Assembly (NCBI GenBank): GCA_050015475.1
Contig: JBEKBI010000003.1
Coordinates: 32,109 to 96,108, forward strand
Source: Acidimicrobiales bacterium
Lineage (GTDB): Bacteria; Actinomycetota; Acidimicrobiia; Acidimicrobiales; Bog-793
Reading direction: 5' to 3'
Length of the DNA stretch: 64,000 nucleotides
In this document: positions 34,715-52,372 of the stretch, piece by piece
Layout of the letters: each line of letters begins with the position of its first letter
How positions within the stretch are numbered: the first letter of the stretch is position 1
Position numbers and translations under genes: made by a program
The notes under the pieces: model-generated
What the model was told of the DNA's origin: nothing
The model's input: only the letters and a program-made list of their open reading frames with translations
Database searches by the model: none

Positions 34715-35727
34715 GACGGAGGCGAGGACCCGCACGAAGCGGCTGCGCCCTCACGACCCAGAGAATCGGAAGCTTCATGCATGGGCGCGTCGCCCTGCCG
34801 CATTCGTTCGTAGCGGTAGCCGAGCCCGCGAATCGTCACGATGCGAAGGGGATCGTCGGGGTCGTCCTCGATGCGGGCGCGCAGCCTATTGACCAGTGTC
34901 GACAATATCTTCCCGTTGCCGACGAAGTTTGGGCCCCAGATGCGCTCGAGCAGAGTTTGCCGGAGCAGTAGCTTGCCCGGTCTGCGCAGCAATTCCTCGA
35001 GAAGCCGGAATTCCTGGCGCGTCAACTCGACGCGCTCTCCCCGCACGTAGACCTCATGACACTCCGGGTCCAACCGGAGGTCGTCGACGACGAGCGCGCC
35101 GGACTCCACCTGTTCGGGAACGAGTGCTACAGCCGTCGGCTGAGCCGGTGTGGCCGTGCTCGAGGGATGAGAGGATCTGCGCCTCAGCACGGCACGGATC
35201 CTGGCTACGAGAACGCGCATGCGGTAGGGCTTGGCGACGAAGTCGTCCGCGCCGACCTCCATGGCGACCACGACGTCGATCTCCTCGGAGCGGTCACTCA
35301 CGATGATCACGGGCACGTTCGAACGGCCTTCTCGGAGTCGCCGGCAGACATCGATCCCAGTCAGTCCGGGCAGCGTGGCGTCCACAATCAGAACGTCGGG
35401 ATTCGTGACCCGGAACAATTCGAGACCGGCTGCGCCGTCCCGGGCCCACGTCACTGCGAAACCCTCGCGCTCGAGGCCAGCACGAATTTCGGAGGCCTGC
35501 TCCTCTTCGTCCTCGATGACGAGGACTCGGGTGGCGCCCACCACCAAGTCGCCTCGCGAATCGCCGGTCCGTGGGTTGCTCTCGTCAGCTGCGCCGAAAT
35601 GATCCCCCGATCCCGGAGAGGACCGGTTGGACCCCGGGCTCCGGCCGAAGCTGGCTGTGACCACGTCGTCGACGTGAGACGGCGGGACGCTGGTCAAGTC
35701 AGCAAACGAACCATCCCGTAGCGGCAT
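34711..35727 (-). CDS. OmpR/PhoB-type response regulator (orphan; low-complexity N-terminal extension if the annotated start is real)
   Basis: Receiver 'RVLVIEDEEE...VLIVDATLPGLTGIDV...PVIIVSD...GADDFVAKP' plus winged-helix 'ELTRQEFRLLEELL...TIRGLGYRYE'. Start may instead be GTG near 35544. No histidine kinase in the window. Confidence 0.88.
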   Translation of the reverse strand: MPLRDGSFADLTSVPPSHVDDVVTASFGRSPGSNRSSPGSGDHFGAADESNPRTGDSRGDLVVGATRVLVIEDEEEQASEIRAGLEREGFAVTWARDGAAGLELFRVTNPDVLIVDATLPGLTGIDVCRRLREGRSNVPVIIVSDRSEEIDVVVAMEVGADDFVAKPYRMRVLVARIRAVLRRRSSHPSSTATPAQPTAVALVPEQVESGALVVDDLRLDPECHEVYVRGERVELTRQEFRLLEELLRRPGKLLLRQTLLERIWGPNFVGNGKILSTLVNRLRARIEDDPDDPLRIVTIRGLGYRYERMRQGDAPMHEASDSLGREGAAASCGSSPPS

Positions 35728-36311: not shown

Positions 36312-37154
36312 TTGTTGGCAATCGAAGAGATCGGGCCAGAGTCCCTCGTTTCAAGTCCACACTTGGCCACCGAAGTCATGGGTGCCCAACTCGACGCGAT
36401 CAACGTGTCGGCCTGGTTCGGCACCAACCGGGTTCTAAGCCGGGTGTCGCTTTCCATGCCGCCCGGAACTGTCACCGCTCTGATCGGCCCGTCCGGATGC
36501 GGCAAGTCGACCTTTCTGCGGATCCTCAACCGCATGCACGAGATGGTGCCCTCGGCCAAGCTGGCTGGCCAGGTCAAGCTCGGCGGTCAAGATATCTACG
36601 CCGTAGGCCAGCGCGTCACCGAGACCCGCAAGAAGATCGGGATGGTGTTCCAGAAGCCGAACCCGTTCCCCGCCATGTCAATCGCCGAGAATGTGATCGC
36701 CGGGTTGAAACTGGTCGGAGTCAAGCTCAGCCGATCCGAACGAGATGAGCTGATTGAGCGGTCGTTGACCCGCGCCGGGCTCTGGACCGAGGTCCGTGAT
36801 CGCTTGCGCGATCCAGGGGGCGCTCTTTCAGGCGGGCAGCAGCAGCGGCTTTGCATCGCCCGCGCGTTAGCAGTCGATCCCATGGTCCTGCTCATGGACG
36901 AGCCCTGCTCCGCGCTCGACCCGACGTCCACGAGACGTATCGAGGACACGATCCACGAAATCAAGGACGAGGTGACGGTGGTGATCGTCACCCACAACAT
37001 GCAGCAGGCCGCCCGCGTGTCAGAGCAGTGCGCCTTCTTCCTTGCCCAGCAGGGCACGCCTGGAGTCATCGTTGAGGCGGGACGGACGGAGAAGATCTTC
37101 ACCGCACCTGACGACCCTCGGACCGAGGACTACGTCAATGGCCGCTTCGGCTGA
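36312..37154 (+). CDS. pstB: Phosphate ABC transporter ATP-binding protein
   Basis: '[12 protein letters not shown]', '[14 protein letters not shown]', '[16 protein letters not shown]', '[12 protein letters not shown]', '[12 protein letters not shown]'. TTG start follows AAGAGGAGGA. Confidence 0.93.
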
Positions 37155-38151
37155 GCCCCCCAGCCGCCTCGATACCCTGGATCAGCCCATCAGTCCACAG
37201 GCGACCAACCCATGGGTCGATCGCCTGTTTCACCTGGTGGCGCGTGGGATAGCCACTGTTGTACTCGTCATCTTCGGGTCGATCGGGATCTTCCTCGCTT
37301 ACCAGTCGATACCGACATTCCGTCGCTACGGCCTGTCGTTCCTGACGCAGTCCCAGTGGAACCCGGAGCTGGACAAGGTGGGGATTTCGTCCACGCTCCT
37401 CGGCACCGTGGAGGTGGCGCTCGTCGCTCTCGTCGTGGCCTTCCCGATCGCGCTGGCCACGGCGCTGTTCATAAGCGAGTACGCCCCGCTGCGGATCAAG
37501 GGCTTTCTCGTGGCCCTGGTCGATCTAATGGCGGCCGTCCCGAGCGTGATCTACGGCGCGTGGGGCTTCTTCCTCCTCATGCCCCACGCCTCGCTCTCTT
37601 CCCGCTTCATCAGCCAGTACTTCAGCTGGATCCCGATCTTCAGGGTCGACACCAACCCGGCGGCCGCAGTCTGGGCCCAGTCGCGCTTTGTCAACTCGGC
37701 GTTCATAGCTGGGCTGTGCGTGTCGCTGATGGTGATACCCATCACCTGCTCGGTCATGCGAGGCGTCTTCGCGGAGGCTCCCCCGGGCGAGCGTGAGGCC
37801 GCATACGCCCTGGGCTCGACCAAGTGGGGGATGATCAGAGCCGTGGTGCTGCCCTTCGGGCGAGGCGGCATCATCGGCGGCACGATGTTGGGACTGGGCC
37901 GCGCGCTCGGAGAGACCATCGCCGTGCTTTTCATCATCTCCCTGACCTTCAACGTCAACTTCCACATCCTTCAGAACGGCACAGCCACCATCTCCGCTCT
38001 GATCGCCAACGACTTCGGAGAATCGACCAGCGCTCAGCTCGCGGCGCTCCTCACCGCCGGGCTTGTCCTTTTCGTCATGACACTCGGCGTCAACACGATC
38101 GCCGCCGTCTTCATCACCCGCAGCCGAAGCGGCGCGGCGACCGAGATCTAG
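37138..38151 (+). CDS. pstC: Phosphate ABC transporter permease
   Basis: 'EYAP.R.K..L....[15 protein letters not shown]' and '[40 protein letters not shown]'. ATG at 37138 overlaps the pstB end by 17 nt. Confidence 0.9.
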
Positions 38152-38160
38152 TCGTGTCTG

Positions 38161-39318
38161 ATGGCTACTGACGTCGTGCCTGCAACCCTCGACCCCACTG
38201 CGCTCGCGCAGTTCGAGCCTCCGGCCGTTGCCGGAGCGCCCGTACCCGTCCCCGACGAGGATGTGCCGACCCCGCTCCACCGCGTGGCCTTGGAGGACGT
38301 TTACGCGGTAGTCGGATCGTTGGTGGGATCCTTTGGACTCGTCTGGTTGGTGTTCTCCTATGTCCTTCCGCTGAGTGGCACGGTCGGCTTCGTGCTGTGT
38401 TGGGATGCCGCCTTCCTCGCCATGTACGCCGGTGTCACCGCCCTCAGCCATCCACGCCCAGTTGTGGTGAGCAGGGTAATGGCCGCGGTCATCGTCGGGC
38501 TCGCGGTGCTCGTGGGTTTCGTCCTCATGACTGTTGTGGTCTACGTAGTGGCCCACGGCTACCACGCCGTAGCGCATCTCAACTTCTTCACCCAGTCGGC
38601 CTCGGCCGGTTCGCTGACGGGGACATTCAAGCAAGGCGGGATCTTTAACGCCCTGGTCGGCTCGCTGATCCAGGTGGGCGCCGCGATAGCCATCGCCCTT
38701 CCCCTGGGGATCGGCACAGCGGTGTTCATGACGGAGACGCGCGGCTGGTTCGTCAAGCTGGTACGGACCGTCGTTGAGGCCATGACAGCCGTCCCCGACC
38801 TCCTCGCCGGCTTGTTCATCTACGTCGTGTTTGTCCTGCCGTTTCACGGCAACTACCCGTGGGGGCACAAGAACGGATTCGCGGTCTCCTTGGCCCTGGC
38901 CGTCGCTGGCACGCCGATCATCGCCCGCTCGGCGGAGGTGGCGCTTCGCGTGGTGCCTGGAGGCTTGCGGGAAGCCGGTCTCGCTTTAGGTGCGTCGCAC
39001 TGGCACACTGTCCGTCGGATCGTGCTGCCCACTGCCCGGCCAGGACTGGCGACCGCATTGATCCTGGCCGTCGCCCGCATGATCGGCGAGAGCGCGCCTC
39101 TTTTGATCGTGTCCGGCTTTACGACCTTCTTCAACGGAAATCCGTTCGACGCCCAGCCGATGATCTCGTTGCCTCTCTACGTCTACGAGACCCTTCGCAG
39201 TGGGCAGCCGGTCGAGATCGTCCGAGGGTTCGGCGCAGCGTTCGTACTGCTGTTCATCGTCTTCATACTGTTCGCCGCCACGAGAGTGCTGGCGCGTCAG
39301 AGGGTGAGCGCCCGATGA
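38161..39318 (+). CDS. pstA: Phosphate ABC transporter permease
   Basis: 'REAGLALGASHWHTVRRIVLPTARPGLATALILAVARMIGESAPLL'. Has a long N-terminal extension with an extra TM region. Confidence 0.88.
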   Translation: MATDVVPATLDPTALAQFEPPAVAGAPVPVPDEDVPTPLHRVALEDVYAVVGSLVGSFGLVWLVFSYVLPLSGTVGFVLCWDAAFLAMYAGVTALSHPRPVVVSRVMAAVIVGLAVLVGFVLMTVVVYVVAHGYHAVAHLNFFTQSASAGSLTGTFKQGGIFNALVGSLIQVGAAIAIALPLGIGTAVFMTETRGWFVKLVRTVVEAMTAVPDLLAGLFIYVVFVLPFHGNYPWGHKNGFAVSLALAVAGTPIIARSAEVALRVVPGGLREAGLALGASHWHTVRRIVLPTARPGLATALILAVARMIGESAPLLIVSGFTTFFNGNPFDAQPMISLPLYVYETLRSGQPVEIVRGFGAAFVLLFIVFILFAATRVLARQRVSAR

Positions 39319-39448
39319 GCTTCGCCACGCTTTGCGCCCGCTGGTGGAGACCGCGGGTATGTCCGCGTGCATCACGTGTCGACGGGCCCGTCACCGGAGG
39401 TGCGCCGACCGTCGGAGCGAACCACTCGAGCCGCAGAGGAGAATTGTC

Positions 39449-41200
39449 GTGAGAACGAGATCTCGGACGCGACGAGGCGGCGCCTGGGCGCGGATAAGCC
39501 GCGCCGGCGCGGCGGTCGCTGTTGCAAGCATCGTCGCTTTGATCGTGTCCCCGCCCGTGGGCGCTGAAAGCGGGTACGAGCAAATCGACGGGTCCGGCTC
39601 GAGCTGGGCCGCGCTGGCGGTGCAGCAGTGGGTCAGCGATGAGTCGAGCTCCATGCAGGTCGTCTATACACCCTCTGGTTCCGCACAGGGCAGGACCGAC
39701 TTCGCCAACGGCCAGAACGACTTTGCGGTCAGTGACATCGGCTACCAGGGGGAGAACAAGCAGACGGGCGTCAACGACTCCTCCAGCCGGCCGTACGCCT
39801 ACCTCCCGATAGTCGGCGGAGCCACGTCGTTTCCCTACAACATCGTCGTCGGAGGGCACCAGGTCGAGAACCTTCGCCTCTCGGGCCTGACGCTCGCCAA
39901 GATCTTCACCGACCAGATAACCAACTGGGACAATCCCGAGATCACCGCCGACAACAACGGCCACGCCCTTCCTTCCATCCCGATCATCCCGGTCATCCAC
40001 TCCGAGGGGGCCGGCACGACTTTCCAGTTCACCGACTATCTCAACACCGAGTACCCGCAACTGTGGCATCAGTTTTCGGGTTACACGTTTCCGGTCGAGT
40101 TCTGGCCCACAGGCCAGGGTTCCCAGGTCGCCGAGAACGGATCCGACGGGGTAATGGGGTTCATCGCCTCCGCCGCAGGTCAGGGATCGATCGGGTACGA
40201 CGAGTATGCCTACGCCATTGGCGCCAGTTTCCCCGTCGTGGCACTCGAGAACGCGGCTGGTTACTTCACCATGCCTGACGCCTATGACGCGGCTGTGTCA
40301 CTGACGCAGGCCCATATCAATTACGACAAGAATCCCGCTGACTGCTCCAGGCTGGGGTTCAGCACGTCACCCTGCTACCTGCTTGAGAAGCTGAACGACG
40401 TCTACACCTACACCGATCCCCGCACGTACCCGCTCTCGTCGTACTCGTACGAGATCATGCCCACGGCGCCGACGTGCTCCGGTCCGACCGCCAAGTGCGA
40501 CCCGACGATGAACACCGCCAAGCGCCAAACGCTCGCAGCTTTTGACGACTTCGCACTCTGCGCCGGGCAGGCGCAGATGGCGCCTATCGGCTACTCGCCC
40601 CTCCCGATCAACCTGGTGGAAGCGTCCTTCGCGCAGGTGACTCTGCTCCACACGGCCGACTCGGCCGTCGTCGTCTCCCAGCTCAACCCCGCTCACTGCG
40701 ACAACCCCACGTTCATAGCCGGCGAGCCCAGCGAGAACTACCTGGCGAAGATCGCCCCATACCCGCCGGCATGTGCCAAGGCGGGGCAAGGGCCGTGCCC
40801 CGGTCAGTACGCGCACAACGGAAACCCGATCGACGGCAAAGCAGCCGGAAACAGCGGCGGAACCGACTCAGGCGGCGGACACAACTCGGGTGGCGGGAAC
40901 AACTCGGGCAGCGGTAACAACTCGGGTGGCGGGAACAACTCGGGTGGCGGACACAACTCAAGCGGGGGAACCAAGGGCGGCGGCACAAAGGGCGGCGGCA
41001 CCAAGGGCGGCGGCACCACACCCCCGTCGACGGTGATTCCGCTGGCGGTGGCCACGGTCCTCACGGGGGACCACCCAGGTGGCCTTGGGTATATCGCGCT
41101 CGGCCTTGTCGTGACCGCCCTCCTCATCGTCGGGCTATTCGCCCCCTCCCTGAGGCGCTCCGCTCGCAAGCGACTGAAGCGACCGGGGCCGTCGACATGA
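39449..41200 (+). CDS. pstS: PstS-family phosphate-binding protein, atypical: signal peptide, enlarged PBP domain, Gly-rich repeat stalk, C-terminal TM anchor with basic tail
   Basis: GTG at 39449 follows GAGGAGAA. 'IDGSGSSWAALAV', 'YTPSGSAQGRTDFANGQNDFAVSD', 'LTLAKIFTDQITNWDNPEI', 'IHSEGAGTTFQFTDYL', 'GSIGYDEYAYA' are PstS hallmarks. No lipobox. C-terminus (GGGxNS)x5-(GGTKG)x3-...HPGGLGYIALGLVVTALLIVGLFAPSLRRSARKRLKR. Confidence 0.82.
   Translation: MRTRSRTRRGGAWARISRAGAAVAVASIVALIVSPPVGAESGYEQIDGSGSSWAALAVQQWVSDESSSMQVVYTPSGSAQGRTDFANGQNDFAVSDIGYQGENKQTGVNDSSSRPYAYLPIVGGATSFPYNIVVGGHQVENLRLSGLTLAKIFTDQITNWDNPEITADNNGHALPSIPIIPVIHSEGAGTTFQFTDYLNTEYPQLWHQFSGYTFPVEFWPTGQGSQVAENGSDGVMGFIASAAGQGSIGYDEYAYAIGASFPVVALENAAGYFTMPDAYDAAVSLTQAHINYDKNPADCSRLGFSTSPCYLLEKLNDVYTYTDPRTYPLSSYSYEIMPTAPTCSGPTAKCDPTMNTAKRQTLAAFDDFALCAGQAQMAPIGYSPLPINLVEASFAQVTLLHTADSAVVVSQLNPAHCDNPTFIAGEPSENYLAKIAPYPPACAKAGQGPCPGQYAHNGNPIDGKAAGNSGGTDSGGGHNSGGGNNSGSGNNSGGGNNSGGGHNSSGGTKGGGTKGGGTKGGGTTPPSTVIPLAVATVLTGDHPGGLGYIALGLVVTALLIVGLFAPSLRRSARKRLKRPGPST
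40871..41017 (+). repeat. Coding tandem repeats: 18-nt unit x5 (GGGHNS/GGGNNS) followed by 15-nt unit x3 (GGTKG)
   Basis: Read directly; lies inside the 3' part of the PstS-like gene. Confidence 0.85.
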
Positions 41201-43977
41201 GAGTTTCCATGCCGCGCCACCGCGTCGCACTATCCCGGATCGGGATGGCCTTGGCGGTGCTGCCCGTCCTCATGCTGACCGCCCTGCCGGCTCACGCTTC
41301 GGCCCCGAGCACAGCGTCATGCGGCGCCCGATCGGTCACGACCAACGGGACATCGTTCTCTGCTACGGAGACGCTTTGCAGGACGTTCTTCGACCAGGGG
41401 GTGGTCGACCGTCGGACGTTCACTGTGACGGTCTCCCAGACGACTAATCTGCGTAACGACCAGGTCATCACGGTTTCGTGGTCCGGCGCGCACCCGACAG
41501 GCGGCATCGTCTCGGCCGAGCAGTTCGCGGCCGCCGCCGAGCAGGAATACCCGGTCGTACTGATGGAGTGCCGAGGCGTCGACTCGCCGGACGTGCCGGC
41601 AGCAAGGCGCCTCTCTCAGGAGACATGCTGGACCGCCACGCCCGCAGAGCGGGTCGTCGCCACGCCGTCCCCTTACTCGATGTGGAGCTTGGACGGGGAC
41701 AATGCCGCCGACGGCGTATGCACACAGCGGTACTGCAACATGCCGATACCGATACCGTCCAACTGCGCCGGCGAGGTAGCACCTGGTCCCAACTACTGGC
41801 TCCCGTTCGACGCCGCTAACGGGACTGACTACGCCATCGGACCGGATGGCTGCGACGGCTCCCCGCCGGAGATGCTCGTTGGGGGCGAGGACCCGGACAT
41901 CATCCCCAGCGATACGACCTATGCCGAGACCGAGCTGAACGGGACCGGGTCGGCGAAGTTCACGATCATGACGTCCGAGACCAACGCCTCTTTGGGGTGC
42001 TCCCAGACCGTTCCCTGCTCGCTCGTAATCATCCCGATCGACGGGATCAACTGCAACGCGAACCCCCAAGTGAGCTCCCCCAACTACCAGTGCGAGTCTC
42101 TCGGAACCTTCCCGGCCGGATCCGTCAACACGGGGAGTAATCCGTACCCGCCTGCGCAGGCGGTCACCGGCGTCTACTGGTGGAGTGGCAGCAACTGGAA
42201 TCGCCGGATCTCCGTGCCACTCAGTTTCGCCACTCCCGCGAATGCATGCGCCAACAATGTGCAGGCTCCGCTTTTGTTCTACGGGTCTGAGGTGATGACC
42301 CTGCTCGCCGAGCAGTGGGACCCGGCTTTCTGCCTCAACTCCAAGCTGTTCAACGTCAACGTGGTCCAACTTCCCGAACCCGTCGCCAAGAACTCCCTGC
42401 AGCAGGGGTTCATCGAGGCTGCCATCCAAGGGGAGCCACCCCCGGTGCCGGCGGGGCAGAAATCGTTCTTCACCAAGCCCACCGTGCAGGCGCCTGTGGC
42501 GGTGAGCGGGTTCGCGATCGCCTATGTCATCGACAACGGGAATGGCTCCGCGTACACGCAACTCCGGCTCGACCCTCGCCTGTTGGCCAAGTTGATGACG
42601 GAGTCCTATTCCGGGACAACCGACGTGCAGGCCGACTGGCAGGTCACCGGCGAGGAGCTCGGATCAGCACCCGACGAGTGCCCGGCGAACTGCAACTCCG
42701 AGTACGCGGCGATGGCGAATAACCCGCAGAGCATCTTCGAGGATCCCGAGTTCCTCGCTCTCAATCCCGGGTTTCATGCCCCCAACGGCATACTGCGGGC
42801 GCCGGCCTCGACGTTGTTCAGCATTCTCTCCCAGTCGGACGTGATCTGGGCTCTCACCTCGTACATCAACGCCGATCCTGAGGCTCGAGCCTGGCTCAAC
42901 GGGAAGCCCGACCCATGGGGCATGGTGGTCAACCCGGCCTACAAGGGCATCAAATTGCCGGTCGACTCCTGGCCACTGCTCGACACGACGACCAATGGTC
43001 CGGAGTACACCGAGACCGGCAACCCGTTCTGCGTCGGAGCGCTCGGAAACGGCACTGCAAAGGTTCCCATTCGGCCGCTGATCGACAACCCCCAGGAGAA
43101 CCTGGGATACGTCGCCTACAACATGCAGTACTCGATCGCCGCGTCCCTTACCGCATGCAACGGCAACACCCTCACGCCCGAATACACGGAGCTTGGACCA
43201 GAGACGCTCGGCAACCGGTTCCTCCTCGGGCTGGTCTCACTGCCCGACGCGGACGAGTTCGACCTCGACACAGCAGCACTCCAGACCTACGCCAACCCGG
43301 AGCGTGAGACCAACGACGGGCCCCTATTCCCTGTGGGCCGTTCCTTCGTGTCCCCGACTCCGGCTTCGCTCGAGACGGCTGCGGCGTTGATGACGCCGGA
43401 CACCGCCGCGGGCACCTGGGTGCTTGCCTACAACGCTCTTCACAGCGACGCCAAGGCCAAAGGGGCTTACCCAGGCACGATGCTGCTTTCCGCCGACGTG
43501 CCTACGAAGGGTCTGCCTGCCAGCGACGCTGACGACTACGGCAAGTACCTGTCGTTTGCCGCCACAACCGGGCAAACACAGGGCTTCGCCGTCGGTCAGC
43601 TCCCGCACGGCTACGTGCCCATGACCTCGAGCGAGGCGGACTACACCAAGGCGGCCGCGGCCGACGTGGCAGCTCAGAACGGGAAGGTCCCGTCCTTGGC
43701 CGCTCAGCCTCCTTCCACGACCACCACCACTACCACCACCACGACCACCGTGGTCACGACCACCACATTGGCGCACGGGAGCTCCACCACCACCACCGTC
43801 GCTTCGGGGGGAACGACAACCACTACGACAACCCAGCCGGGGGATCTCGTCGGCGCGACTCTCGGTCTGGAGGCAGGGGTCGGTGGCCTCGCTCTGCCCC
43901 TGGCCCTGTTGGTGGCCCTTCTCGGAGGAGTGTGGACTGCCGGAATCATGCTGCGGCGGAGGCGGAGCCGGTCGTGA
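41197..43977 (+). CDS. 926-aa secreted, Cys-rich surface protein of unknown function (distal part possibly PBP/PstS-like), poly-Thr stalk, C-terminal TM anchor plus RRRRSRS
   Basis: ATG overlaps the pstS-like stop (ATGA). Signal peptide 'MALAVLPVLMLTALPAHASA'. Later segments ('LLFYGSEVMTLLAEQW', 'APVAVSGFAIAYVID...LRLDPRLLAKLMTESYSG', 'GAYPGTMLLSADVP') loosely resemble type-II PBP blocks. Tail ...TTTTTTTQPGDLVGATLGLEAGVGGLALPLALLVALLGGVWTAGIMLRRRRSRS. Confidence 0.75.
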   Translation: MRVSMPRHRVALSRIGMALAVLPVLMLTALPAHASAPSTASCGARSVTTNGTSFSATETLCRTFFDQGVVDRRTFTVTVSQTTNLRNDQVITVSWSGAHPTGGIVSAEQFAAAAEQEYPVVLMECRGVDSPDVPAARRLSQETCWTATPAERVVATPSPYSMWSLDGDNAADGVCTQRYCNMPIPIPSNCAGEVAPGPNYWLPFDAANGTDYAIGPDGCDGSPPEMLVGGEDPDIIPSDTTYAETELNGTGSAKFTIMTSETNASLGCSQTVPCSLVIIPIDGINCNANPQVSSPNYQCESLGTFPAGSVNTGSNPYPPAQAVTGVYWWSGSNWNRRISVPLSFATPANACANNVQAPLLFYGSEVMTLLAEQWDPAFCLNSKLFNVNVVQLPEPVAKNSLQQGFIEAAIQGEPPPVPAGQKSFFTKPTVQAPVAVSGFAIAYVIDNGNGSAYTQLRLDPRLLAKLMTESYSGTTDVQADWQVTGEELGSAPDECPANCNSEYAAMANNPQSIFEDPEFLALNPGFHAPNGILRAPASTLFSILSQSDVIWALTSYINADPEARAWLNGKPDPWGMVVNPAYKGIKLPVDSWPLLDTTTNGPEYTETGNPFCVGALGNGTAKVPIRPLIDNPQENLGYVAYNMQYSIAASLTACNGNTLTPEYTELGPETLGNRFLLGLVSLPDADEFDLDTAALQTYANPERETNDGPLFPVGRSFVSPTPASLETAAALMTPDTAAGTWVLAYNALHSDAKAKGAYPGTMLLSADVPTKGLPASDADDYGKYLSFAATTGQTQGFAVGQLPHGYVPMTSSEADYTKAAAADVAAQNGKVPSLAAQPPSTTTTTTTTTTTVVTTTTLAHGSSTTTTVASGGTTTTTTTQPGDLVGATLGLEAGVGGLALPLALLVALLGGVWTAGIMLRRRRSRS
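43717..43833 (+). repeat. Coding low-complexity poly-Thr tract (acc/acg runs)
   Basis: PPSTTTTTTTTTTTVVTTTTLAHGSSTTTTVASGGTTTTTTT, read from the sequence. Confidence 0.85.
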
Positions 43978-44936
43978 CAGTGATCGACGCCGACGCTTTC
44001 GACCTCGTCATCGACCGGTCCGATGGTGCTCGGTCCCCCACCCCCGAGACATCGGCCCCGGCTGCTCCGGCGAGCGTATCGAGCAGGCGGAACGCGCGGG
44101 CGATCGCTCGCGGTGTGGCAGTCGCGATACCGACCGTCCTCGCCGTGCTCGCGTTGTGGTTCCTGGCGTACGGGTTTGTCCTGAGCGGCGTCGAGCAACA
44201 TGTGTCCCAATCCCGCCTCTACGACGAGTTCCGTTTGGAGTTGGCGGCAGAAACGGCACCCCTGGCGGAGCCGGTGCAGGTCGGATCGCCGGTGGCCATC
44301 CTCAACGCCCCGTCGGCGGGGATCGACAACCTCATCGTGGTCGAAGGCACGACATCCCGACTTCTCATGTCCGGCCCCGGCCACCTGAGCGACACCCCGC
44401 TACCGGGGCAGGCTGGCACGTCGGAAATCCTCGGGCGCAGCGTCACATTCGGGGCCCCCTTCGGCCGCATCACTCAGATGTCCGTGGGCGATGTTGTCAC
44501 GGTGACCACAGGCCAGGGAGTCTTCCGTTACCGCGTCGAGGACATCCGCGAGCCGGGAAACCGGCTCCCTCCGCCGCTCCACGCCGACGGCTCCCGGCTC
44601 ACGCTGGTGACCTCGACGAGTGGAGGGTGGAGAAGCGGATGGGCTCCGACTCACACCGTGTATGTCGATGCCGTTCTCTCGGGAAAGGCCCAGCCGTTGC
44701 CCGCGGGGGTGCCGGCAACGGTTAGCCAAGCTTCGCTCCCGATGCACAGCGACCCGACTGCTGGTATCGCGCTCATCTTCTGGCTCGAGGGCCTTGTCCT
44801 TGCCTCTCTCGCCATCGGCTGGACGTGGGTTAGGTGGGGCCGGTTCGAGACATGGATTGTCGGAACGCCCGTGTTCATCGCGGTGCTGTGGGGGACGACC
44901 GAAGCCCTCATGCGGTTCCTGCCGAACCTGTTGTAG
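43974..44936 (+). CDS. Sortase-fold membrane protein (class E-like architecture) lacking the catalytic Cys and His: candidate pseudo-sortase or non-canonical enzyme
   Basis: GTG overlaps the upstream stop (GTGA) and follows GGAG. N-terminal TM helix, then 'NLIVVEGTTSRLLMSGPGHLSDTPLPGQAGTSEILGRSVTFGAPFGRITQMSVGDVVTVTTGQGVFRYRV...RLTLVTSTSGGW'. This matches sortase blocks, but AGHR is LGRS and TLxTC is TLVTS. The 320-aa protein has zero Cys. Two C-terminal TM helices. Confidence 0.6.
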   Translation: MTVIDADAFDLVIDRSDGARSPTPETSAPAAPASVSSRRNARAIARGVAVAIPTVLAVLALWFLAYGFVLSGVEQHVSQSRLYDEFRLELAAETAPLAEPVQVGSPVAILNAPSAGIDNLIVVEGTTSRLLMSGPGHLSDTPLPGQAGTSEILGRSVTFGAPFGRITQMSVGDVVTVTTGQGVFRYRVEDIREPGNRLPPPLHADGSRLTLVTSTSGGWRSGWAPTHTVYVDAVLSGKAQPLPAGVPATVSQASLPMHSDPTAGIALIFWLEGLVLASLAIGWTWVRWGRFETWIVGTPVFIAVLWGTTEALMRFLPNLL

Positions 44937-45501: not shown

Positions 45502-46335
45502 TCAGGCCACTCGCCGCCGGCGTCGGAAGAAGAACAGCGCGGCCCCCCCGGCAAGGAGCAGGGCCGCGATCACTCCTCCGGCGATCGCACCCGCGGAAGC
45601 GCCACCTCCCGAACCCGACGTGGCTCCTTGGGCAGTCTTCGAGGCGCCCCCACCAGAAGGCTGCGTGGAACCCGTGGAGGCAGATCCGCCCTTGCGCCCG
45701 GGAGCCCGGCCAACCTTTACTGGCGGCTTGGGTACGGCGGTCTCCGACTTGGGCAGGACGAGCGATTCCTCGGACACGGCAGTCCCATCGGTGCAGGAGG
45801 ATCCACCCCCCTGAACCAGGGTCCAAGTGGTGCCAGTGACCCTGATGACGGCCGTCGGGTAGCTGGTTGTCCAGGCCTGCTCGTCGGGGCTGGAGAAAAC
45901 CATTCGCAACTGGTACAGGCCATCCCAGTACGGCGGCGTCGAGTGATCCGGCCAGATCAAGGGGGCGTCAGCGTAGGTGGCTTGCGCCATCGGGTGGTCC
46001 CGGTTCGAGAACGTTGCGTCGTCGGTCAGCTGATAGCCCGTCCAGTCTCCTGGATCCAAGTACTGAAGCGGCTGGAACAGGTCGAGCGTGGCCCTGGTGT
46101 AACCCGCAGGAGCAGGAGCCGAGGACACCGCTCTCCACACGAATGGAATGGTCAGCAGGCTGCCTGAAGTGATCGGCTGTTCGTGTGCGTTGCACAATGT
46201 CAGCGAACCAACTCGATTGGGATCCGTGAAGGGGACCTTGGAGCCGCTGGCGAAAGCGGCCGACGGTACGACAAGCGCGCCGACGGTAACCACCAAAACA
46301 AGTGCCCCCCTTGTCAGCCAACTCCGGGTGCTCAT
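45502..46335 (-). CDS. Secreted protein of unknown function with Gly/Ser stalk and C-terminal TM anchor plus RRRRR
   Basis: Start at MSTRSWLTRGALVLVVTVGALVVPSAAFA (signal peptide), 7 nt after the DUF916 stop. Tail ...GSGGGASAGAIAGGVIAALLLAGGAALFFFRRRRRVA. Confidence 0.7.
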   Translation of the reverse strand: MSTRSWLTRGALVLVVTVGALVVPSAAFASGSKVPFTDPNRVGSLTLCNAHEQPITSGSLLTIPFVWRAVSSAPAPAGYTRATLDLFQPLQYLDPGDWTGYQLTDDATFSNRDHPMAQATYADAPLIWPDHSTPPYWDGLYQLRMVFSSPDEQAWTTSYPTAVIRVTGTTWTLVQGGGSSCTDGTAVSEESLVLPKSETAVPKPPVKVGRAPGRKGGSASTGSTQPSGGGASKTAQGATSGSGGGASAGAIAGGVIAALLLAGGAALFFFRRRRRVA

Positions 46336-46342
46336 TTGAGAT

Positions 46343-47563
46343 TTATTCTCTTTCTCGCTCAGCCGGCGCCACTGGCGTCGGGTCCTTGGCAGCAGACTCG
46401 CGTCCGACGACCTGACGCTTCGCAACACGGCCCGAGGCCGGCGCATCGCCGGATTGGGATTCCTGCTTGCCGGTGTCGTCTCCCTCCCCTGGCTTGTCCG
46501 AATCCGCTGCCGATCCACGACCCCGCCGGCGGCGGCGGCGATAGAACCAACCGAGCGCGATCAGGATCGCTGCAACGATGATTGCTATCAGTGTCCACGG
46601 GATGGCCCAGAACGACCGCGAGGCCTGGAAAGGACCCGACGACGACGCGACCGAACCGGCTATGTAAAGAGGCTGAATGGACACGTGGGCCGTCTCGCGA
46701 ATCTCGGGGAATATGCCCGTCACCTCGACGGCCTCTTTGACCGAGTAGCCCGGCAGCAAGAGCTGAAGCCTCGGGACGCCAGTGGCGGTGGACCGGCTCC
46801 CGAACAACCCTGAGACGTAGACCGTCTGAAGCCCGCCTAGGGCGACGTTGCCGGTGTTGGAAACGGTGTAGGTGACCCTTGCCTGGCCGGTGCCGATCGG
46901 GTCGAGCGTCCCTTGATAGTGGACCGCGAGCCCGGTGATGGTGAGAGACGGGCGCAACCGCCCGCTTACACGTAGGAAGATTCGGGTGCCGACGGTCTGC
47001 AACAGTCGCACCCGCTCGCCGCTTTTCGATATCACGGACGACACGAGGGTGGCGGTGATCACGCCGATATGGTCGCCGGGCGTCGCGTTTGCGGGCACCT
47101 CGATCAGGAAGGGGATGATGAGGACGGAGCGGGGCCGGAGCGTCAGCTGCAAGTCCGACTTGGGTAACAAGATCCAGGTGCCGAGGTCGTGAGAGCGCTC
47201 GTCGATGGGCCGCGCCGCGAAGCCGCCTTGCGGGGTGTTGATGCCGTCAGTTCCCCGTATCAGAAAGGTCGCTGTCTGGTCGGAGTAATTGAGGATCGCG
47301 ACGTGATCCTCGATCCGCCCACCGGGCGTCGACCCGAACAGGTAAATGCCCCGGTTGTCGGGCTTGGTGGCGGAAGCCGTCTGCGTGCCGAAGGTGACGA
47401 CGTTCCTCCGCTCCGACGGCGCCTTTTGCCCGTACGCCGGAGCAAGAGAAAGCAACAAAGCGAGGGCGCAGCTCACGACGGCTGCAATAGACAAATAGAG
47501 CCGGGTGGATCGTCGGATTGTCGTGTCGCGAGGCTGCATTTGGCGTGTCCGAATATCATCCAC
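46343..47563 (-). CDS. DUF916-type cell-surface protein (CscA-like, WxL-locus associated), C-terminal TM plus poly-Arg and an acidic/basic tail
   Basis: Signal peptide, then 'YLFGSTPGGRIEDHVAILNYSDQTATFLIRGTDGINTPQGGF', 'WILLPKSDLQLTLRPRSVLIIPFLIEVPANATPGDHIGVI', 'RIFLRVSG' and a second Ig-like half. TM 'WTLIAIIVAAILIALGWFYRRRRRRGRG'. This pattern matches DUF916/DUF3324 proteins as I recall them. Confidence 0.7.
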   Translation of the reverse strand: MDDIRTRQMQPRDTTIRRSTRLYLSIAAVVSCALALLLSLAPAYGQKAPSERRNVVTFGTQTASATKPDNRGIYLFGSTPGGRIEDHVAILNYSDQTATFLIRGTDGINTPQGGFAARPIDERSHDLGTWILLPKSDLQLTLRPRSVLIIPFLIEVPANATPGDHIGVITATLVSSVISKSGERVRLLQTVGTRIFLRVSGRLRPSLTITGLAVHYQGTLDPIGTGQARVTYTVSNTGNVALGGLQTVYVSGLFGSRSTATGVPRLQLLLPGYSVKEAVEVTGIFPEIRETAHVSIQPLYIAGSVASSSGPFQASRSFWAIPWTLIAIIVAAILIALGWFYRRRRRRGRGSAADSDKPGEGDDTGKQESQSGDAPASGRVAKRQVVGRESAAKDPTPVAPAERERE

Positions 47564-47676
47564 GAGGTTGAGGAGCCGTTCGTTTCATCAGCTATGGAGA
47601 ACGGTTACGACGCTTCAGTCTACCTGGTCAAGATGGATGGACATTGGCGGCCGCAACCCTCGTAGAAACGGCAGGA

Positions 47677-47700
47677 GCGGGACGGCCGAGGCCGCCCCGC
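47677..47700 (-). terminator. GC-rich hairpin downstream of the WxL-like gene (10-bp stem, one mismatch)
   Basis: gcgggacggc c gag gccgccccgc, read directly, about 60 nt after the stop at 47759. Confidence 0.3.
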
Positions 47701-47758
47701 CCCTCTGATTTCGATAACCGCGCGAGCTTGAGTGGCCCGACGGCCCTCCTTCTGCCGT

Positions 47759-49630
47759 CTAGGAGACGGAGAAGGTGATGGTGCCGCTGTAGGTGCCGGC
47801 CGGGGTGCTGGTCGCTGCGTACAGCGTCAGCGTCCCGTACATCAGAGCCGTGCCATCAGAGGCGCTGCTTACGGCCCACGTCTGTGCTGTGGAGCCGAGT
47901 CCAGGACCGGTGCCAGGACCGTCCACCGGGCTCGGGTTCTTCGCAACGATGTTGTTGAAGGCCACGTCACCGGCGTAGGCGCTGGTTCCGGTGGAGTTGT
48001 ACTCGCCGCCGGTCAAACCAAGGCCCGAAGCCGGGATCGAGTTAGCGCCGCTGGTAAGCGCCGTCGCCGAAACCGAGAGCGTCCAAGCGTAGGCGGGAGC
48101 CAGAGTGCTGGTCACTGTGATGTCCTGATCTCCGGCCTTCGGGAACTGCGCCGAGGACTGGAAATAGGTGCCATCACTGCTCAGTGTCATCGCCGGAAGC
48201 ACGAACGGGTTGGTGCTCGTGTACGGCGTGCTGATCGTGATTGTGCCTGGGTTTATGGTCACCTGGAGGTTCTGGGTGTCCGAGCAGACCGAACCGGCGT
48301 TGGCAGGCGGGCAAACAGCCGGAGCCGCAACCGTGACCGAGACCGCGGACGACGTCGAGGACGCGTACGAGTTGCTGGTCGGGCTGAACACGGCCGTAAT
48401 GCTGTTGCCGCCCTGGGGCAGGGAGCTCGTGTCGCAAGTCGCCGTGCCGCTGTATGGCGAGGTCGTGCTCACCGTGGTCACCTGAGCTGTGCAGCCGGCG
48501 ATCGCGGTGGTGCCGTTCAGAAACTCCACGTTCCCAGCCAAGCCCGTGCTGACGCTGTCGCTCTCGGTAACCGTCGCCGTCAAGTCCACCGGCGCGCCGT
48601 AAGCGGCGCTGGCGGTGTTGGTCGACAGCGCGGTCGAGGTTGCAACCTGCGGCGGGGTGACCGAAACCGGCACCGAGGACGAGCTCGAGCCGCCCACGAA
48701 GCTTGCATTCCCCGACCCCAACACAGTCGTGGTCGAGGCAGTCTCGTCACCGGGTGCCGGGACGAAGGTCGCCGTGTAGCTGTACGAGCCGGCGGTCGGC
48801 GCGTACGTGTAGGTGGCGACTCCGGCGCTCGGGGTCACGTCGGCCAGGAAGGTGGTGCCGTTGTAGAACTGCACCGTTCCAGCTGCACTGCTCGACACCG
48901 TAGCCGTCAGGGTGACGGAGTTCGGTGTGACCACGTGGGCTGCCGACGCCGTGAGGCTCGTGGTCGTGGCGCTGACGAACGGGTACAGGACCGCCCATCC
49001 ATCCGCTGGCACTGTGGTGCCATCCAGCGTGATTGCCGACGACGTCGTGTTGTAGCCGATGTCGCTCTCCCAGTAGGTGCCGGTGCTGTTGCCAGCGCCG
49101 CCCGCACCCGAGTCGGTCAGGCGAACCTGGATGGTGTTGACGTAGCCGGTGGTGGTGTCGCTGGGATTAACCGAAATGAAGCTGGTGATGTTGGCTGCTG
49201 ACGTGGCCGCGACCGGGTACGAAGCCGCGTCGGCCACGATGTCAGCGGGCGTGCCAGTAGGCAGGCTGGAGGCGGGATTGAAGGTCGTCGTGCCGCTCTC
49301 GGCCGTCCCTGTCCAGCCCGCCGGCAGGACGCCGTGCACTGGGAGGTAGAAGTTGACGATGGCCTTGTTGGCTCCCGAGTCGGGGGCGGTGCTGGCCACG
49401 ACGTAGGCGAACGGACTGCTCAGGTTGGTCCCGCTGGTAACCTGCACTCCGTTGGAGTTGTAGAAGGTGAGGTTGCCGTAGGGGGCTGCAGCGTTTGTGT
49501 CGGGTTCCCAGGGGGGAGCCGTAGTCGCCGCAAAGGCCGTACTCGCAATAGCGAGCAGCCCTCCTCCGGCGATGGCTGCGGTGAGCAACCCTGCCACCGC
49601 CACCTTGAGACTTCGCTTCGTTGGCTTCAC
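47759..49630 (-). CDS. Secreted surface protein: novel N-terminal domain, Ig-like repeats, C-terminal WxL-type domain
   Basis: GTG start follows GAAAGGAAAG. Signal peptide ...IASTAFA. Ig-like modules ('VTLTATVSSSAAGTVQFYNGTTFLADV...YSYTATFVP', 'VDLTATVTE...GNVEFLNGTTAIAGC'). C-terminal about 190 aa ('LQVTINPGTITISTP...ITVTSTLAPAYAWTLSVSATAL...GTLTLYAATSTPAGTYSGTITFSVS') looks like a WxL domain. Confidence 0.72.
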   Translation of the reverse strand: MKPTKRSLKVAVAGLLTAAIAGGGLLAIASTAFAATTAPPWEPDTNAAAPYGNLTFYNSNGVQVTSGTNLSSPFAYVVASTAPDSGANKAIVNFYLPVHGVLPAGWTGTAESGTTTFNPASSLPTGTPADIVADAASYPVAATSAANITSFISVNPSDTTTGYVNTIQVRLTDSGAGGAGNSTGTYWESDIGYNTTSSAITLDGTTVPADGWAVLYPFVSATTTSLTASAAHVVTPNSVTLTATVSSSAAGTVQFYNGTTFLADVTPSAGVATYTYAPTAGSYSYTATFVPAPGDETASTTTVLGSGNASFVGGSSSSSVPVSVTPPQVATSTALSTNTASAAYGAPVDLTATVTESDSVSTGLAGNVEFLNGTTAIAGCTAQVTTVSTTSPYSGTATCDTSSLPQGGNSITAVFSPTSNSYASSTSSAVSVTVAAPAVCPPANAGSVCSDTQNLQVTINPGTITISTPYTSTNPFVLPAMTLSSDGTYFQSSAQFPKAGDQDITVTSTLAPAYAWTLSVSATALTSGANSIPASGLGLTGGEYNSTGTSAYAGDVAFNNIVAKNPSPVDGPGTGPGLGSTAQTWAVSSASDGTALMYGTLTLYAATSTPAGTYSGTITFSVS

Positions 49631-49710
49631 TTAGAACTTTCCTTTCGGTTGGCTAGCTGATCGGTGTCTGGGGAGTTGCCGTATAGCGCAGGAGTACTGC
49701 GCCTGGCCGC

Positions 49711-49741
49711 CCCCTCTCTCCCCAGAACGGGGAGGAGAGGG
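49711..49741 (-). terminator. Hairpin after the PBP-like gene (6 bp, 1-nt bulge, 6 bp; cccctctctcccc agaac ggggaggagaggg)
   Basis: Read directly, 26 nt downstream of the stop at 49767. No U-tract. Could be a partial terminator or processing site inside the operon. Confidence 0.35.
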
Positions 49742-49766
49742 ACAGACAGGTGATCGGCCCTTACAG

Positions 49767-51500
49767 CTAGCAGGAGCCAGCGGTGTCGGTACCGGTGAGT
49801 TCGGTGCAGATCTCCGGGATGGTCGGGGTGATTCCGGCGTCCTCGAGGAGCGTCTGACCTTCGGCGGAGTCGATGTACGGGGCTCCGTCAGGCCCGTAGG
49901 TCGCAGCGTTTGCTCCGGAACCCACGGTGATGCAGTTGTTCGCCCCGGCTGGGCACGGGTCGTAGAACAGGGTGTTGAGCCAGTTCTCCGTCGTACCGGG
50001 CTGCCAGGCAGTGGTCGAGGCGATGTCGCTGTTGCGGAACAGGAGGAACAGGGGTCGGGTCGGGTCGAACAGACCACTCGTGTAGCCACTGGCGGAGTAG
50101 ACGCCGAGGCCAACCGGTCCCGTTGTCCCGGTAACCGATGTACCCGTGCTGGCGGTGATCGTCACGACGTTCGGCGACACGGCCTTGGGGGTCCCGAGGC
50201 CACCGTTCGCGCTGCCACTGGTCTCACATGCCGCGCTCCCAACCAGGTAGGCACAGCTGGGGTCGAGGAAGTAACCGCCACTAGGAAGGCCACCGGATGC
50301 GCCGGTGTTGCTGACGCCCCGGTAGAGGTCGAGGCGGCCCTGCGACATGGGCTCGATGGCGTCCGCAGGAGTACCTGCGACGTCAAAGATGGCCGTCGGG
50401 TCATTCTCTTCCGAGACCAGGGCACAAGCCGGCACGTAGCTGGTGTTGCTCGACAGGCCGATCTGCTGGAGGAAGTACTTACGAGTGCCCGAGCCAACCT
50501 GCGGGATGAGCGGGATGATCTTGTCGCCGCTCGCCGAGGGGTTGACAAGGCCGACGTTGTCCGACGTGCTGGTGGAGAAGCTCGAGGGAAGAGCGTCGCT
50601 CAGGGTGATGGTTCCTGTCCCAGCGCTTGAGACGGTCTCAGGTGAGCCGTTCTCTCCGTCGACCACAGCGCCGTTGACCTCAACTGCCCAGCCATCGTTG
50701 GCCGAGGTGGGTTGCTGCGGGTCGCTGCTGGGGAACGTGACGGCTTTCGAGCTGGCGGTGAGGCTGGCACCCTCCAGGTAGACCCCAGTGATCTCCGGGT
50801 CGTTCCAGGTGATGCAACCCGATGCCGGGGCTGTGTAGATGTAGTTCAGCTGCAACGCCGTGAGCGGCACGGCGTTCGTGCTGACACCGGAAGTGATCAT
50901 CGGCAGCGTGTCAGTGGCGATCTGGAGCTGGTCGATCGTCGGTATTGATGACGACGGGTTGCTCCCGGTCTCCGAGGAGGAGGACCGCGCGAAGTTGATG
51001 ACCTCGCTGCTCGCGGAGTTGTGGCCGGCGGTCACGTCCTGGACCAGGGCGTTGAATCCGGCGCCAGAGCCGTTGGGCCGTAGCACGGGCTGAAGACCGG
51101 CCCGCAGCACCACCGTCGGGTTGAGCACGCAGGGAGCACCGCTGTTGGGCGACGTCTGGTTGCCTGTTCCAGAGCCGCTCCCGGTGCCGGGCGTGCAGCT
51201 CGACTGGCCGGTTTGGCCACCGTCGACGCCGTAAGCGAGGCGAGCGTTGGCGTCGGCCGTCGCGTCGATGTCGACCACCTTGTACTTGTTGCCGAGCTGG
51301 TTGTAGCCGGTGTCGCCGTAGGCATTGCCGTCCGCCAGGAAGTCAATCCCGTACTGGATGGTGTCAGATCCGACGCCAACCACGTCACCTTTGTTGGGGG
51401 CGTAATCCGCGTATGCCGAAGGCACCACGAGCGCAAGTGGCAGCACTGCGGCCACCACCGTCGCCGCAGCTAAGCCAAGCTTCAGTGTGCGGTGTCTCAA
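49767..51500 (-). CDS. Secreted PstS/PBP_like_2-fold substrate-binding-like protein with large insertions (third PstS-fold protein of the island)
   Basis: TTG at 51500 follows GAAGGAG (ORF extends to 51545). Signal peptide LKLGLAAATVVAAVLPLALVVPSAYA. 'VVGVGSDTIQ', 'LRPNGSGAGFNAL', 'INFARSS', 'LTALQLNYIYT...ITWNDPEI', 'IPQVGSGTRKYF' follow the PstS-family block order. No lipobox or TM anchor. Confidence 0.6.
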   Translation of the reverse strand: MRHRTLKLGLAAATVVAAVLPLALVVPSAYADYAPNKGDVVGVGSDTIQYGIDFLADGNAYGDTGYNQLGNKYKVVDIDATADANARLAYGVDGGQTGQSSCTPGTGSGSGTGNQTSPNSGAPCVLNPTVVLRAGLQPVLRPNGSGAGFNALVQDVTAGHNSASSEVINFARSSSSETGSNPSSSIPTIDQLQIATDTLPMITSGVSTNAVPLTALQLNYIYTAPASGCITWNDPEITGVYLEGASLTASSKAVTFPSSDPQQPTSANDGWAVEVNGAVVDGENGSPETVSSAGTGTITLSDALPSSFSTSTSDNVGLVNPSASGDKIIPLIPQVGSGTRKYFLQQIGLSSNTSYVPACALVSEENDPTAIFDVAGTPADAIEPMSQGRLDLYRGVSNTGASGGLPSGGYFLDPSCAYLVGSAACETSGSANGGLGTPKAVSPNVVTITASTGTSVTGTTGPVGLGVYSASGYTSGLFDPTRPLFLLFRNSDIASTTAWQPGTTENWLNTLFYDPCPAGANNCITVGSGANAATYGPDGAPYIDSAEGQTLLEDAGITPTIPEICTELTGTDTAGSC

Positions 51501-52372
51501 TTTGAACTCCTTCAATTGATCGTCAAGGATCGCACGCCTTCGCAAAATGGGTGCCTTTTAGGAATAACATGCGAAGATGTTTTTCCAACCTCCACGAGGT
51601 GAACAGGCCATGAATTTTGCGTGATTCCTTTACATATTGAGGAGAATGTCCTGGTCATCTCCTGAGGACCGCGGCTTGTCCGGATGCCTGCCCGGATGGC
51701 CGGATCCTGACCATTCACGGCTCCACGACCACGCGGCGTGGGCAAGCCGAGACAAGCCTCCGTCTCCAGCCTGACGAAGGCTGCCATCAAGCCGAAAACG
51801 GGGATCTCCACCCGTCCCCGACCCCTCCGTCAGCCCACAGAGGCTTGACCTGAACGACAAGCACGCCGTCGCTGGGCCGCCAAAGCCGCTAATCGCGACG
51901 ACGACACCCCAACAAGAGGACCGGCTGACCCAACCGGGCGCAAAGGGTCGCCGGCGACACGACGCGGGAGTTTGGGGACCTGTTGAGAGACGAACCCGTC
52001 TTCGCCCACCACAAGTCCGTGCGCCACTTCTACCGTTTTGGCGGGCGAGGTCTCGCCTCGGCACTAGGGCGCGGGAGCCCATCCACACAACCCACAGCCG
52101 GCGTCGACTGTAGCCAAGCTGGCCTGCAGGTCTGGCACGAGACGGACGGCTCGTTCAGCCTCTGCGCGGGTGAGTCTGGACTCGAAGCCAGCAAGTCGTC
52201 CGGAATCTCGAGGATTCCGCCAACCATGGAAGCCCCAACTTCTCGACCAAAGCAGGCCGCGCCGGTCCGCGTTGCACCGTTCACCGCCTCGACCCGAGCA
52301 GCAGCTCGTTTAGCACCCTCGGGCGAGGCGGTGGGTTATGCGGCCTCGCGGTCGCCGAGGCGACACGGACCG

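Follow-up and report, generated by a model that had tools for sequence, protein, structure and literature searches.

A conserved sortase-fold protein without the catalytic triad in a Pst-type transporter cluster of Actinomycetota

Introduction

Sortases are textbook Cys transpeptidases, and class E comprises the LAXTG-specific housekeeping members of Actinobacteria, such as Streptomyces coelicolor SrtE1 (5CUW), S. avermitilis SrtE (5GO5/5GO6), Corynebacterium diphtheriae SrtF (5UUS) and Actinomyces oris SrtA (5UTT). Here we describe a gene located in a 64,000-nucleotide stretch of DNA, called the window below, from an Acidimicrobiales bacterium (assembly GCA_050015475.1, contig JBEKBI010000003.1, positions 32,109 to 96,108 of the forward strand). 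It encodes a protein of 320 amino acids (aa) that belongs to the sortase superfamily and in which the catalytic His, Cys and Arg are all replaced; we refer to it as pseudo-sortase. The gene closes a cluster that resembles the Pst phosphate importers of the ATP-binding cassette (ABC) type. In RefSeq and UniProt its relatives are labelled ‘sortase’, ‘class E sortase’ or ‘sortase domain-containing protein’, so that an anchoring enzyme which is probably missing at this locus is attributed to hundreds of actinobacterial genomes.

An earlier inspection of the letters of the window, hereafter the sequence-only reading, had offered three options for this gene: a dead sortase retained as a chaperone or scaffold for neighbouring anchored proteins, a sortase-derived enzyme with a Ser nucleophile and a new specificity, or a recently inactivated gene. 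It had also stated that no Cys-less sortase family was known to it. This appears to be right: full-text searches of the literature, with most subscription journals outside their coverage, returned no description of such a family nor of a link between sortases and Pst systems, and neither Pfam nor NCBIfam has a dedicated model for the pseudo-sortase family. A study of the five sortases of Actinoplanes missouriensis describes class E and class F candidates, with no mention of phosphate or of catalytic residues (PMC13251363).

The Gene Cluster

Six genes follow one another on the + strand of the window, in the order PstB, PstC, PstA, PstS-like, P926 and pseudo-sortase. The first three encode a PstB-like ATPase (36312..37154), a PstC permease (37042..38151, start uncertain) and a PstA permease (38161..39318). 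Both permeases pass the equivalog cut-offs of their families (PstC, TIGR02138, 241.4 bits, cut-off 196.45; PstA, TIGR00974, 197.4 bits, cut-off 193.45), and the ATPase stops just under its own (TIGR00972, 334.5 bits, cut-off 343.2). They are followed by a PstS-like protein of 622 aa (39332..41200) with a PBP_like_2 domain, whose true start is probably downstream of 39332 and whose score with TIGR00975 (159.9 bits) is below the cut-off of 205, by a secreted protein of 926 aa, here named P926 (41197..43977), and finally by the pseudo-sortase gene (43974..44936). The GTG start of the latter (43974-43976) is overlapped by the TGA stop of the P926 open reading frame (43975-43977) in the tetranucleotide GTGA, an arrangement that indicates translational coupling of pseudo-sortase to P926; the coupling had been noticed in the sequence-only reading and the coordinates bear it out. 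The same start is found in a public protein (P0001) with 100% identity to pseudo-sortase over 320 aa.

The permeases, the nearly matching ATPase and the PstS fold or homology of both receptors, described below, are shared with canonical PstSCAB, as in Escherichia coli and in Mycobacterium tuberculosis (PstS-1/PstS-3). Canonical PstS is either a periplasmic protein or an N-terminal lipoprotein. The cluster of the window, unlike the canonical system, encodes two receptors with C-terminal transmembrane (TM) anchors, one of which has about 900 aa and a Cys-rich beta domain, together with an extra membrane protein of sortase fold.

A Sortase Fold With a C-Terminal Membrane Hairpin

Pseudo-sortase has no Cys and five His among its 320 residues, and it carries the motif blocks Q..Q..L..EF, VVEGT..LL..GPGH...T.LPGQ.G, GD.V.V.T....F.Y.V, RLTLVTS and LGRS. 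The complete lack of Cys, these blocks and the class-E-like architecture had been read from the letters, and are borne out by the composition and by the profile matches. In particular, the Pfam model Sortase (PF04203) gives 45.3 bits (cut-off 26.6, E 8.7e-12), and the top NCBIfam model is class_E_sortase (NF033747), whose cut-off of 160 bits is not reached by the 63.8 bits of pseudo-sortase. A sequence search of the PDB returned only sortases, belonging to classes E, D and C: C. diphtheriae SrtF (5UUS), Clostridium perfringens SrtD (4D70) and S. avermitilis SrtE (5GO5/5GO6).

The model built with AlphaFold2 (AF2) on 52 family members shows an N-terminal TM helix running into a long helix, then a beta-barrel and then a C-terminal helical hairpin, with a mean pLDDT (predicted local distance difference test score) of 66.6 and values of 75-89 in most of the barrel core. 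When this model was compared with the PDB by Foldseek, all of the top 50 matches were sortases (best 4d70_A, E 8e-10, TM-score 0.76 on the target), which upholds the fold proposed in the sequence-only reading. The predicted topology has a cytoplasmic N-terminus, a first TM helix at about residues 45-69, a juxtamembrane helix, an extracellular sortase-fold domain at about residues 100-240 and the C-terminal TM hairpin (residues 262-319, 44757..44930, + strand). The two extra C-terminal TM helices that had been seen in the sequence are placed by AF2 at residues 262-288 and 290-319, and this part of the protein has conserved W270, W283, R287-W288, W294, P299 and a terminal LLPNL. Several relatives (P0207, P0237, P0254 and P0262) have low-complexity N-terminal cytoplasmic extensions of 130-200 residues, whose starts are perhaps miscalled.

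By homology and by the eight-stranded beta-barrel fold of its model, pseudo-sortase is a member of the sortase superfamily (PF04203 / MEROPS C60), nearest to class E. It shares with this class the best sequence and profile matches, the beta-barrel fold, the motifs VxEGT, GPGH, LPGxxG and GAPF, the N-terminal TM anchor followed by an extracellular domain, and neighbours provided with a stalk, a TM helix and a basic tail. It differs from class E in the catalytic residues discussed below, in the low score, in the conserved two-helix TM hairpin ending in LLPNL, in neighbours that have neither LAXTG nor LPXTG and in its residence in a Pst-type operon.

Loss of the Catalytic Triad

The catalytic positions were mapped by HMMER alignments to solved sortases. 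The catalytic His of AGHR, at the end of beta4, corresponds to R155 in LGRS (codon 44436..44438), the catalytic Cys of TLVTC to S214 in TLVTS (44613..44615) and the catalytic Arg, on beta8, to T228 (44655..44657; all on the + strand), where HSHRLIV is aligned with PTHTVYV and T228 with the Arg of S. avermitilis SrtE. The replacement of the dyad read from the letters (AGHR by LGRS, TLxTC by TLVTS) is thus confirmed by the alignments and extends to the Arg, so that the whole triad is substituted.

The same positions were followed in three sets of relatives. In the close set, made of the 120 nearest database proteins (46-100% identity, nearly all of about 320 aa), GRS is found in 120/121 sequences, and position 214 is Ser in 110/121 and Ala in 8. 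The wider set consists of the best 150 representatives of clusters at 50% identity, nearly all of which align through the C-terminal LLPNL; here position 155 is R in 138 and K in 12 and, with the query included (n=151), position 214 is A in 88, S in 38, T in 7, G in 6 and V in 5. In the locus set (85 genomic loci) the counts are R63/K19/H4 at position 155 and S50/A31 at position 214. Cys at position 214 occurs in none of the three sets (>350 relatives), and the column of the catalytic Arg is variable across the family (V/A/T/L). His at position 155 is limited to four Dactylosporangium loci (L014, L018, L019 and L025; orthologue near 10001-10795), where it stands in the motif YGHAAAF and is always accompanied by Ala at 214; these His-keeping proteins may be intermediates in the loss of the triad, or reversions. 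A further departure from class E concerns the Tyr of the beta3/beta4 loop, after GxGH, which has been proposed to read the Ala of LAXTG (PMC5148588): the corresponding residue after GPGH is L138 in the query, R in 73 and L in 41 sequences of the wider set, and L57/R15 in the locus set, with Tyr in 2/86. Judged on these residues and on the profile score, which fails the class E cut-off, pseudo-sortase is not a sortase by any enzymatic criterion tested.

Other residues are conserved in the wider set, among them E124, G125, T126, G134-P-G-H137, T141, L143-P-G-Q146, G148, G154, G160 and P162-F163, then R208, L209, L211, T/S213, P225 and V231-D232-A233, and in the membrane part also LLPN. A salt bridge between R155 and D232 filling the former active site was considered and is not claimed here, the strand geometry leaving doubt.

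These data bear on the option that pseudo-sortase is an active sortase-derived protease or transpeptidase which processes the non-LPXTG tails of its neighbours through a new nucleophile (Ser214, Thr/Ser213 or a His137/Asp232 site). A dedicated sortase beside proteins with tripartite tails does resemble the known sortase/substrate pairs, Ser214 is kept in the close Acidimicrobiaceae clade (110/121), and T/S213, H137, R/K155 and D232 are nearly invariant family-wide. However, Ser214 is ruled out as an essential nucleophile by the Ala present at this position in 88 of the 151 sequences of the wider set and in 31 of the 86 of the locus set; a His at the catalytic position is found only in the four Dactylosporangium loci, together with Ala at 214; and the Arg position is variable. 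Moreover, T213 and H137 are also conserved in the aligned canonical sortases, whose published His/Cys/Arg triad includes neither (PMC5148588). We consider a new enzyme of this kind very unlikely, and the Ser nucleophile of the sequence-only reading, at a position where Ala prevails (88, against 38 Ser, of 151) and Thr, Gly or Val take most of the rest, is not sustained.

Conservation and Distribution

The ratio of non-synonymous to synonymous substitution rates (dN/dS, Nei-Gojobori) between pseudo-sortase and eight orthologues is 0.19-0.29. An exhaustive HMMER scan of 1.84 billion cluster representatives returned 278 clusters at E<1e-30, and the family is conserved in several orders of Actinobacteria, at identities as low as about 36%. 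Taking one genome per GTDB species, at least 201 loci were found, and the carrier taxa given here are those of the best 80 of them. The closest group consists of Acidimicrobiaceae and Acidimicrobiales; other carriers are Dactylosporangium (including a complete genome), Nocardioides spp., Pimelobacter simplex, one Streptomyces sp., Frankiaceae, Jatrophihabitans, Acidothermaceae, Pseudonocardiales, Streptosporangiaceae, Nanopelagicales and Propionibacteriales. Two loci with a cluster of actinobacterial type (L045 and L081) are filed under the names of an ‘Oscillatoria nigro-viridis’ and a ‘Melainabacteria’ metagenome-assembled genome, and binning contamination is probable for them.

Pseudo-sortase therefore belongs to a conserved family under selection that lacks the canonical triad. 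The replacement of all three catalytic residues could by itself be taken for strain-specific decay of a sortase gene or for a nascent pseudogene, but the open reading frame is intact, the same substitutions recur in more than 350 relatives, with no canonical His/Cys pair among them, and both the family-specific C-terminal TM hairpin and the synteny are conserved. The low dN/dS and the loss of the triad throughout the family exclude recent inactivation, to which we assign a practically negligible probability. The search for orthologues with the same substitutions, indicated in the sequence-only reading as a means to tell function from decay, thus points to function.

Two Tail-Anchored Receptors

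The two proteins encoded immediately upstream of pseudo-sortase have a common layout, consisting of an N-terminal signal peptide without lipobox and a C-terminal part in which a low-complexity stalk leads to one hydrophobic helix and then to a basic tail. The stalk of the PstS-like protein is Gly/Asn-rich. In P926 an N-terminal beta-rich domain is followed by a PstS-like substrate-binding fold, a Thr/Pro stalk, a TM anchor and the tail RRRRSRS, and 12 Cys are invariant in its family; the N-terminal beta domain is Cys-rich.

P926 had no match in Pfam, in NCBIfam or in the PDB (phmmer), and its comparison by BLASTP with two PBP-like neighbours was insignificant. Since sequence searches gave nothing, its PstS fold was revealed only by the AF2 model (pLDDT 81.6, predicted TM-score 0.80) and Foldseek: all of the top 30 matches in the PDB are phosphate-binding proteins, among them M. 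tuberculosis PstS-1 and PstS-3, E. coli PstS and Xanthomonas citri PhoX, with TM-scores of 0.71-0.79 on the target among the closest, over about 470-490 aligned columns. P926 is hence predicted to hold a PstS-type phosphate-binding fold. Its family is large and unannotated, with 839 matches at E<=1e-3; its homologues are entered in the databases as ‘hypothetical’, and one member at JGI is named ‘ABC-type phosphate transport system substrate-binding protein’. The anchored proteins mentioned in the sequence-only reading are, in the light of these results, phosphate-receptor-like proteins of PstS fold, and the gene belongs to the cluster of a Pst-type ABC importer, both of which had been missed.

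The tripartite shape of the tail upstream of pseudo-sortase and its lack of a sorting motif had been described correctly: stalk, TM helix and basic tail are present, and a motif scan found no LPXTG, LAXTG or NPXTG in any tripartite tail of the window. Likewise, no LPXTG, LAXTG or NPXTG occurs in the orthologous receptor tails of 53-67 non-redundant loci, and no canonical sortase paralogue was found in the window by tblastn. A Gibbs search of the tails of non-redundant loci, run against shuffled controls, detected other signals. The tails of the PstS-like proteins contain a motif xPTxL[AP] at a median of 14 residues before the TM helix (8.8 bits against <=6.7 in the shuffles), exemplified by NPTELAA and VPTDLAA and corresponding to ATVLT in the protein of the window, and the end of their TM helices is marked by a conserved Pro and a following RR. 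In the tails of P926 a motif of the GGxALP type lies at the start of the TM helix (7.6 bits against <=6.3 in the shuffles), and many of these tails have [LM][GP]xT 12-16 residues upstream, which was spotted by eye.

The presence of tails resembling sorting signals beside a sortase-fold protein would also suit a decoy or protector, which shields the receptor tails from signal peptidase, a housekeeping sortase or further proteases and in this way regulates the retention of the receptors instead of providing a scaffold for transport. A precedent exists in SafA, reported as a small membrane protein that modulates the stability of an actinobacterial sortase (PMC9282373). However, the receptor tails offer a housekeeping sortase no LPXTG or LAXTG to cut, and we regard this function as quite unlikely.

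Linkage to the Pst-Type Genes

Synteny was analysed by tblastn of the window proteins against the fetched loci; the counts, taken on the same strand, refer to the 67 loci whose upstream flank extends over at least 7.5 kb. A P926 homologue is present in 67/67 of them, and homologues of PstB, PstC, PstS-like and PstA in 65, 64, 63 and 62, respectively. PstB lies upstream of pseudo-sortase in 42 loci and downstream in 23, as in Nocardioides, where pseudo-sortase is consequently found inside the transporter operon. P926 comes after pseudo-sortase rather than before it in two loci (L047 and L065), and other gene orders occur in four (L066, L072, L073 and L081), so the gene set is retained despite rearrangements. 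Five metagenomic contigs with independent gene calls have the same context. In the reverse test, a Sortase-domain gene overlapping by 4 nucleotides follows each of the three P926 homologues chosen, and genes for PBP_like_2, two permeases and an ATPase come before it. Pseudo-sortase is, accordingly, genetically inseparable from a Pst-type importer and from its two C-terminally TM-anchored receptors of PstS fold.

In one database protein (P0144, 1211 aa), a P926 homologue and a pseudo-sortase are joined in frame, with a coherent topology (outside, TM, cytoplasmic linker, TM, outside). As Rosetta-stone evidence this fusion is weak, being a single case.

The solid link of the operon to a transporter is also compatible with pseudo-sortase being a non-catalytic module that binds the cell wall or lipid II and positions the transporter and its receptors with respect to peptidoglycan, or senses wall precursors, instead of binding the protein tails. 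Sortases accommodate lipid II or the cross-bridge in a second-substrate site, and the basic R/K155 in place of His, together with the conserved R208, could suit an anionic ligand. Yet binding to the wall or to lipid II is hypothetical, and it is specifically with P926 that the gene is tightly paired, often through translational coupling; this, like the fusion, points to a protein partner. Such a module appears unlikely.

A Proposed Non-Catalytic Partner of Tethered Receptors

We propose, with a probability of about 0.6, that pseudo-sortase is a sortase-derived pseudoenzyme kept as an accessory membrane subunit or scaffold for the tail-anchored phosphate-receptor-like proteins. As such, it probably acts as a non-enzymatic partner of the Pst-type transporter. 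This corresponds to the dead chaperone or scaffold of the sequence-only reading: family-wide loss of the triad, purifying selection and linkage to two tail-anchored proteins speak for it, and the mechanism is inferred. In a more specific and tentative form, to which we give somewhat less than even odds, the sortase has been exapted as a non-catalytic ‘sorting-signal receptor’ that holds both receptor tails with its dead groove and its TM hairpin, and thus represents an unrecognised accessory subunit of a widespread actinobacterial importer of the phosphate type, with tail-anchored binding proteins in place of lipoproteins.

The class-E-like barrel and its groove-forming loops (VVEGT, GPGH, LPGQxG and GAPF) are retained despite the loss of His, Cys and Arg. 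According to the proposed mechanism, pseudo-sortase would no longer cleave the receptor tails but bind or organise them: the former peptide groove would hold the xPTxL[AP] of the PstS-like protein and the [LM][GP]xT and GGxALP of P926, the Trp-rich TM hairpin would pack against the TM anchors of the receptors or against PstCA, and the tethered receptors would be held beside the permease, with pseudo-sortase serving as scaffold, tether or assembly factor. Tail binding is compatible with, though not proved by, the retention of the groove loops and the conservation of the juxtamembrane motifs.

In SrtB/Isd the partners of the sortase are haem-uptake receptors of a nutrient ABC system, a situation recalling that of the pseudo-sortase cluster. 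Dedicated pairs of this kind, including the class GN ‘marine’ sortase (TIGR03784) and the target encoded beside it, resemble pseudo-sortase also in that the latter directly adjoins proteins with tripartite tails. Unlike it, the sortases of these pairs are active Cys transpeptidases, and their targets become covalently attached to the wall; in the present cluster a dead enzyme accompanies targets that, by prediction, remain anchored in the membrane. A dedicated sortase/substrate pair such as SrtB/Isd may have given rise to a non-covalent membrane complex: since an ABC receptor must reach its permease, its covalent attachment to the wall would have been given up, and the enzyme kept as a binding partner.

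Several points weigh against this proposal. With a mean pLDDT of 66.6, the AF2 model of pseudo-sortase has moderate confidence. The tail motifs are degenerate, with that of P926 just modestly above the shuffles, and binding of the tails by the sortase domain is hypothetical. The P0144 fusion is a single case, which a 1-nucleotide error at the 4-nucleotide overlap could create, and may be an artefact of assembly or frameshift. Phosphate is a putative substrate of the transporter: the PstS-like protein stays below the PstS equivalog cut-off, and where X. citri PstS has RSDGSGTTF it has HSEGAGTTF (Arg to His, Asp to Glu, Ser to Ala); its ligand may be other than plain orthophosphate, or its affinity altered. 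Finally, the near-invariance of R/K155, D232, T/S213 and H137 is unexplained by a scaffold role alone, and these residues could belong to an active site or a ligand site yet to be discovered.

Pseudoenzymes are in themselves a common phenomenon. What is new here is a widespread dead branch of the sortases with its own C-terminal membrane module, strictly linked to a Pst-like system and accompanied by a giant cryptic partner of PstS fold and by tails resembling sorting signals, which would be unexpected to specialists of both sortases and ABC transporters. The presence of a conserved dead sortase in a Pst-like operon suggests that Actinomycetota of soil and freshwater take up nutrients through an architecture not yet described, in which two C-terminally tethered receptors of PstS fold, one of 900 aa, would work with a sortase-fold partner. 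Furthermore, it offers a clean case for how an enzyme/substrate pair becomes a non-covalent complex, testable in cultured carriers (Nocardioides, Pimelobacter simplex, Dactylosporangium), and a caution against the use of sortase gene counts to predict which surface proteins are anchored to the cell wall.

Other Genes of the Locus

Just upstream of the Pst-like cluster, the window contains the genes for a GGDEF-EAL protein (33278-34714, + strand) and for an OmpR-type response regulator (34711-35727, - strand). A second conserved gene set lies 3' of pseudo-sortase in many loci and is absent from those of Nocardioides; in the window it occupies 45502-54334 on the - strand, with open reading frames at 45502-46518, 46343-47563, 47759-49630, 49767-51545 and 52373-54334. 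It encodes a 592-aa protein whose orthologues are PBP_like_2 proteins, two Big_3_5 immunoglobulin-like proteins, a 338-aa protein with a tripartite tail and a 406-aa protein with a TM helix and an Arg-rich tail, the orthologue of which weakly matches WxLIP_PGBD. This second set can be likened to the WxL/DUF916 cell-surface clusters of Firmicutes.

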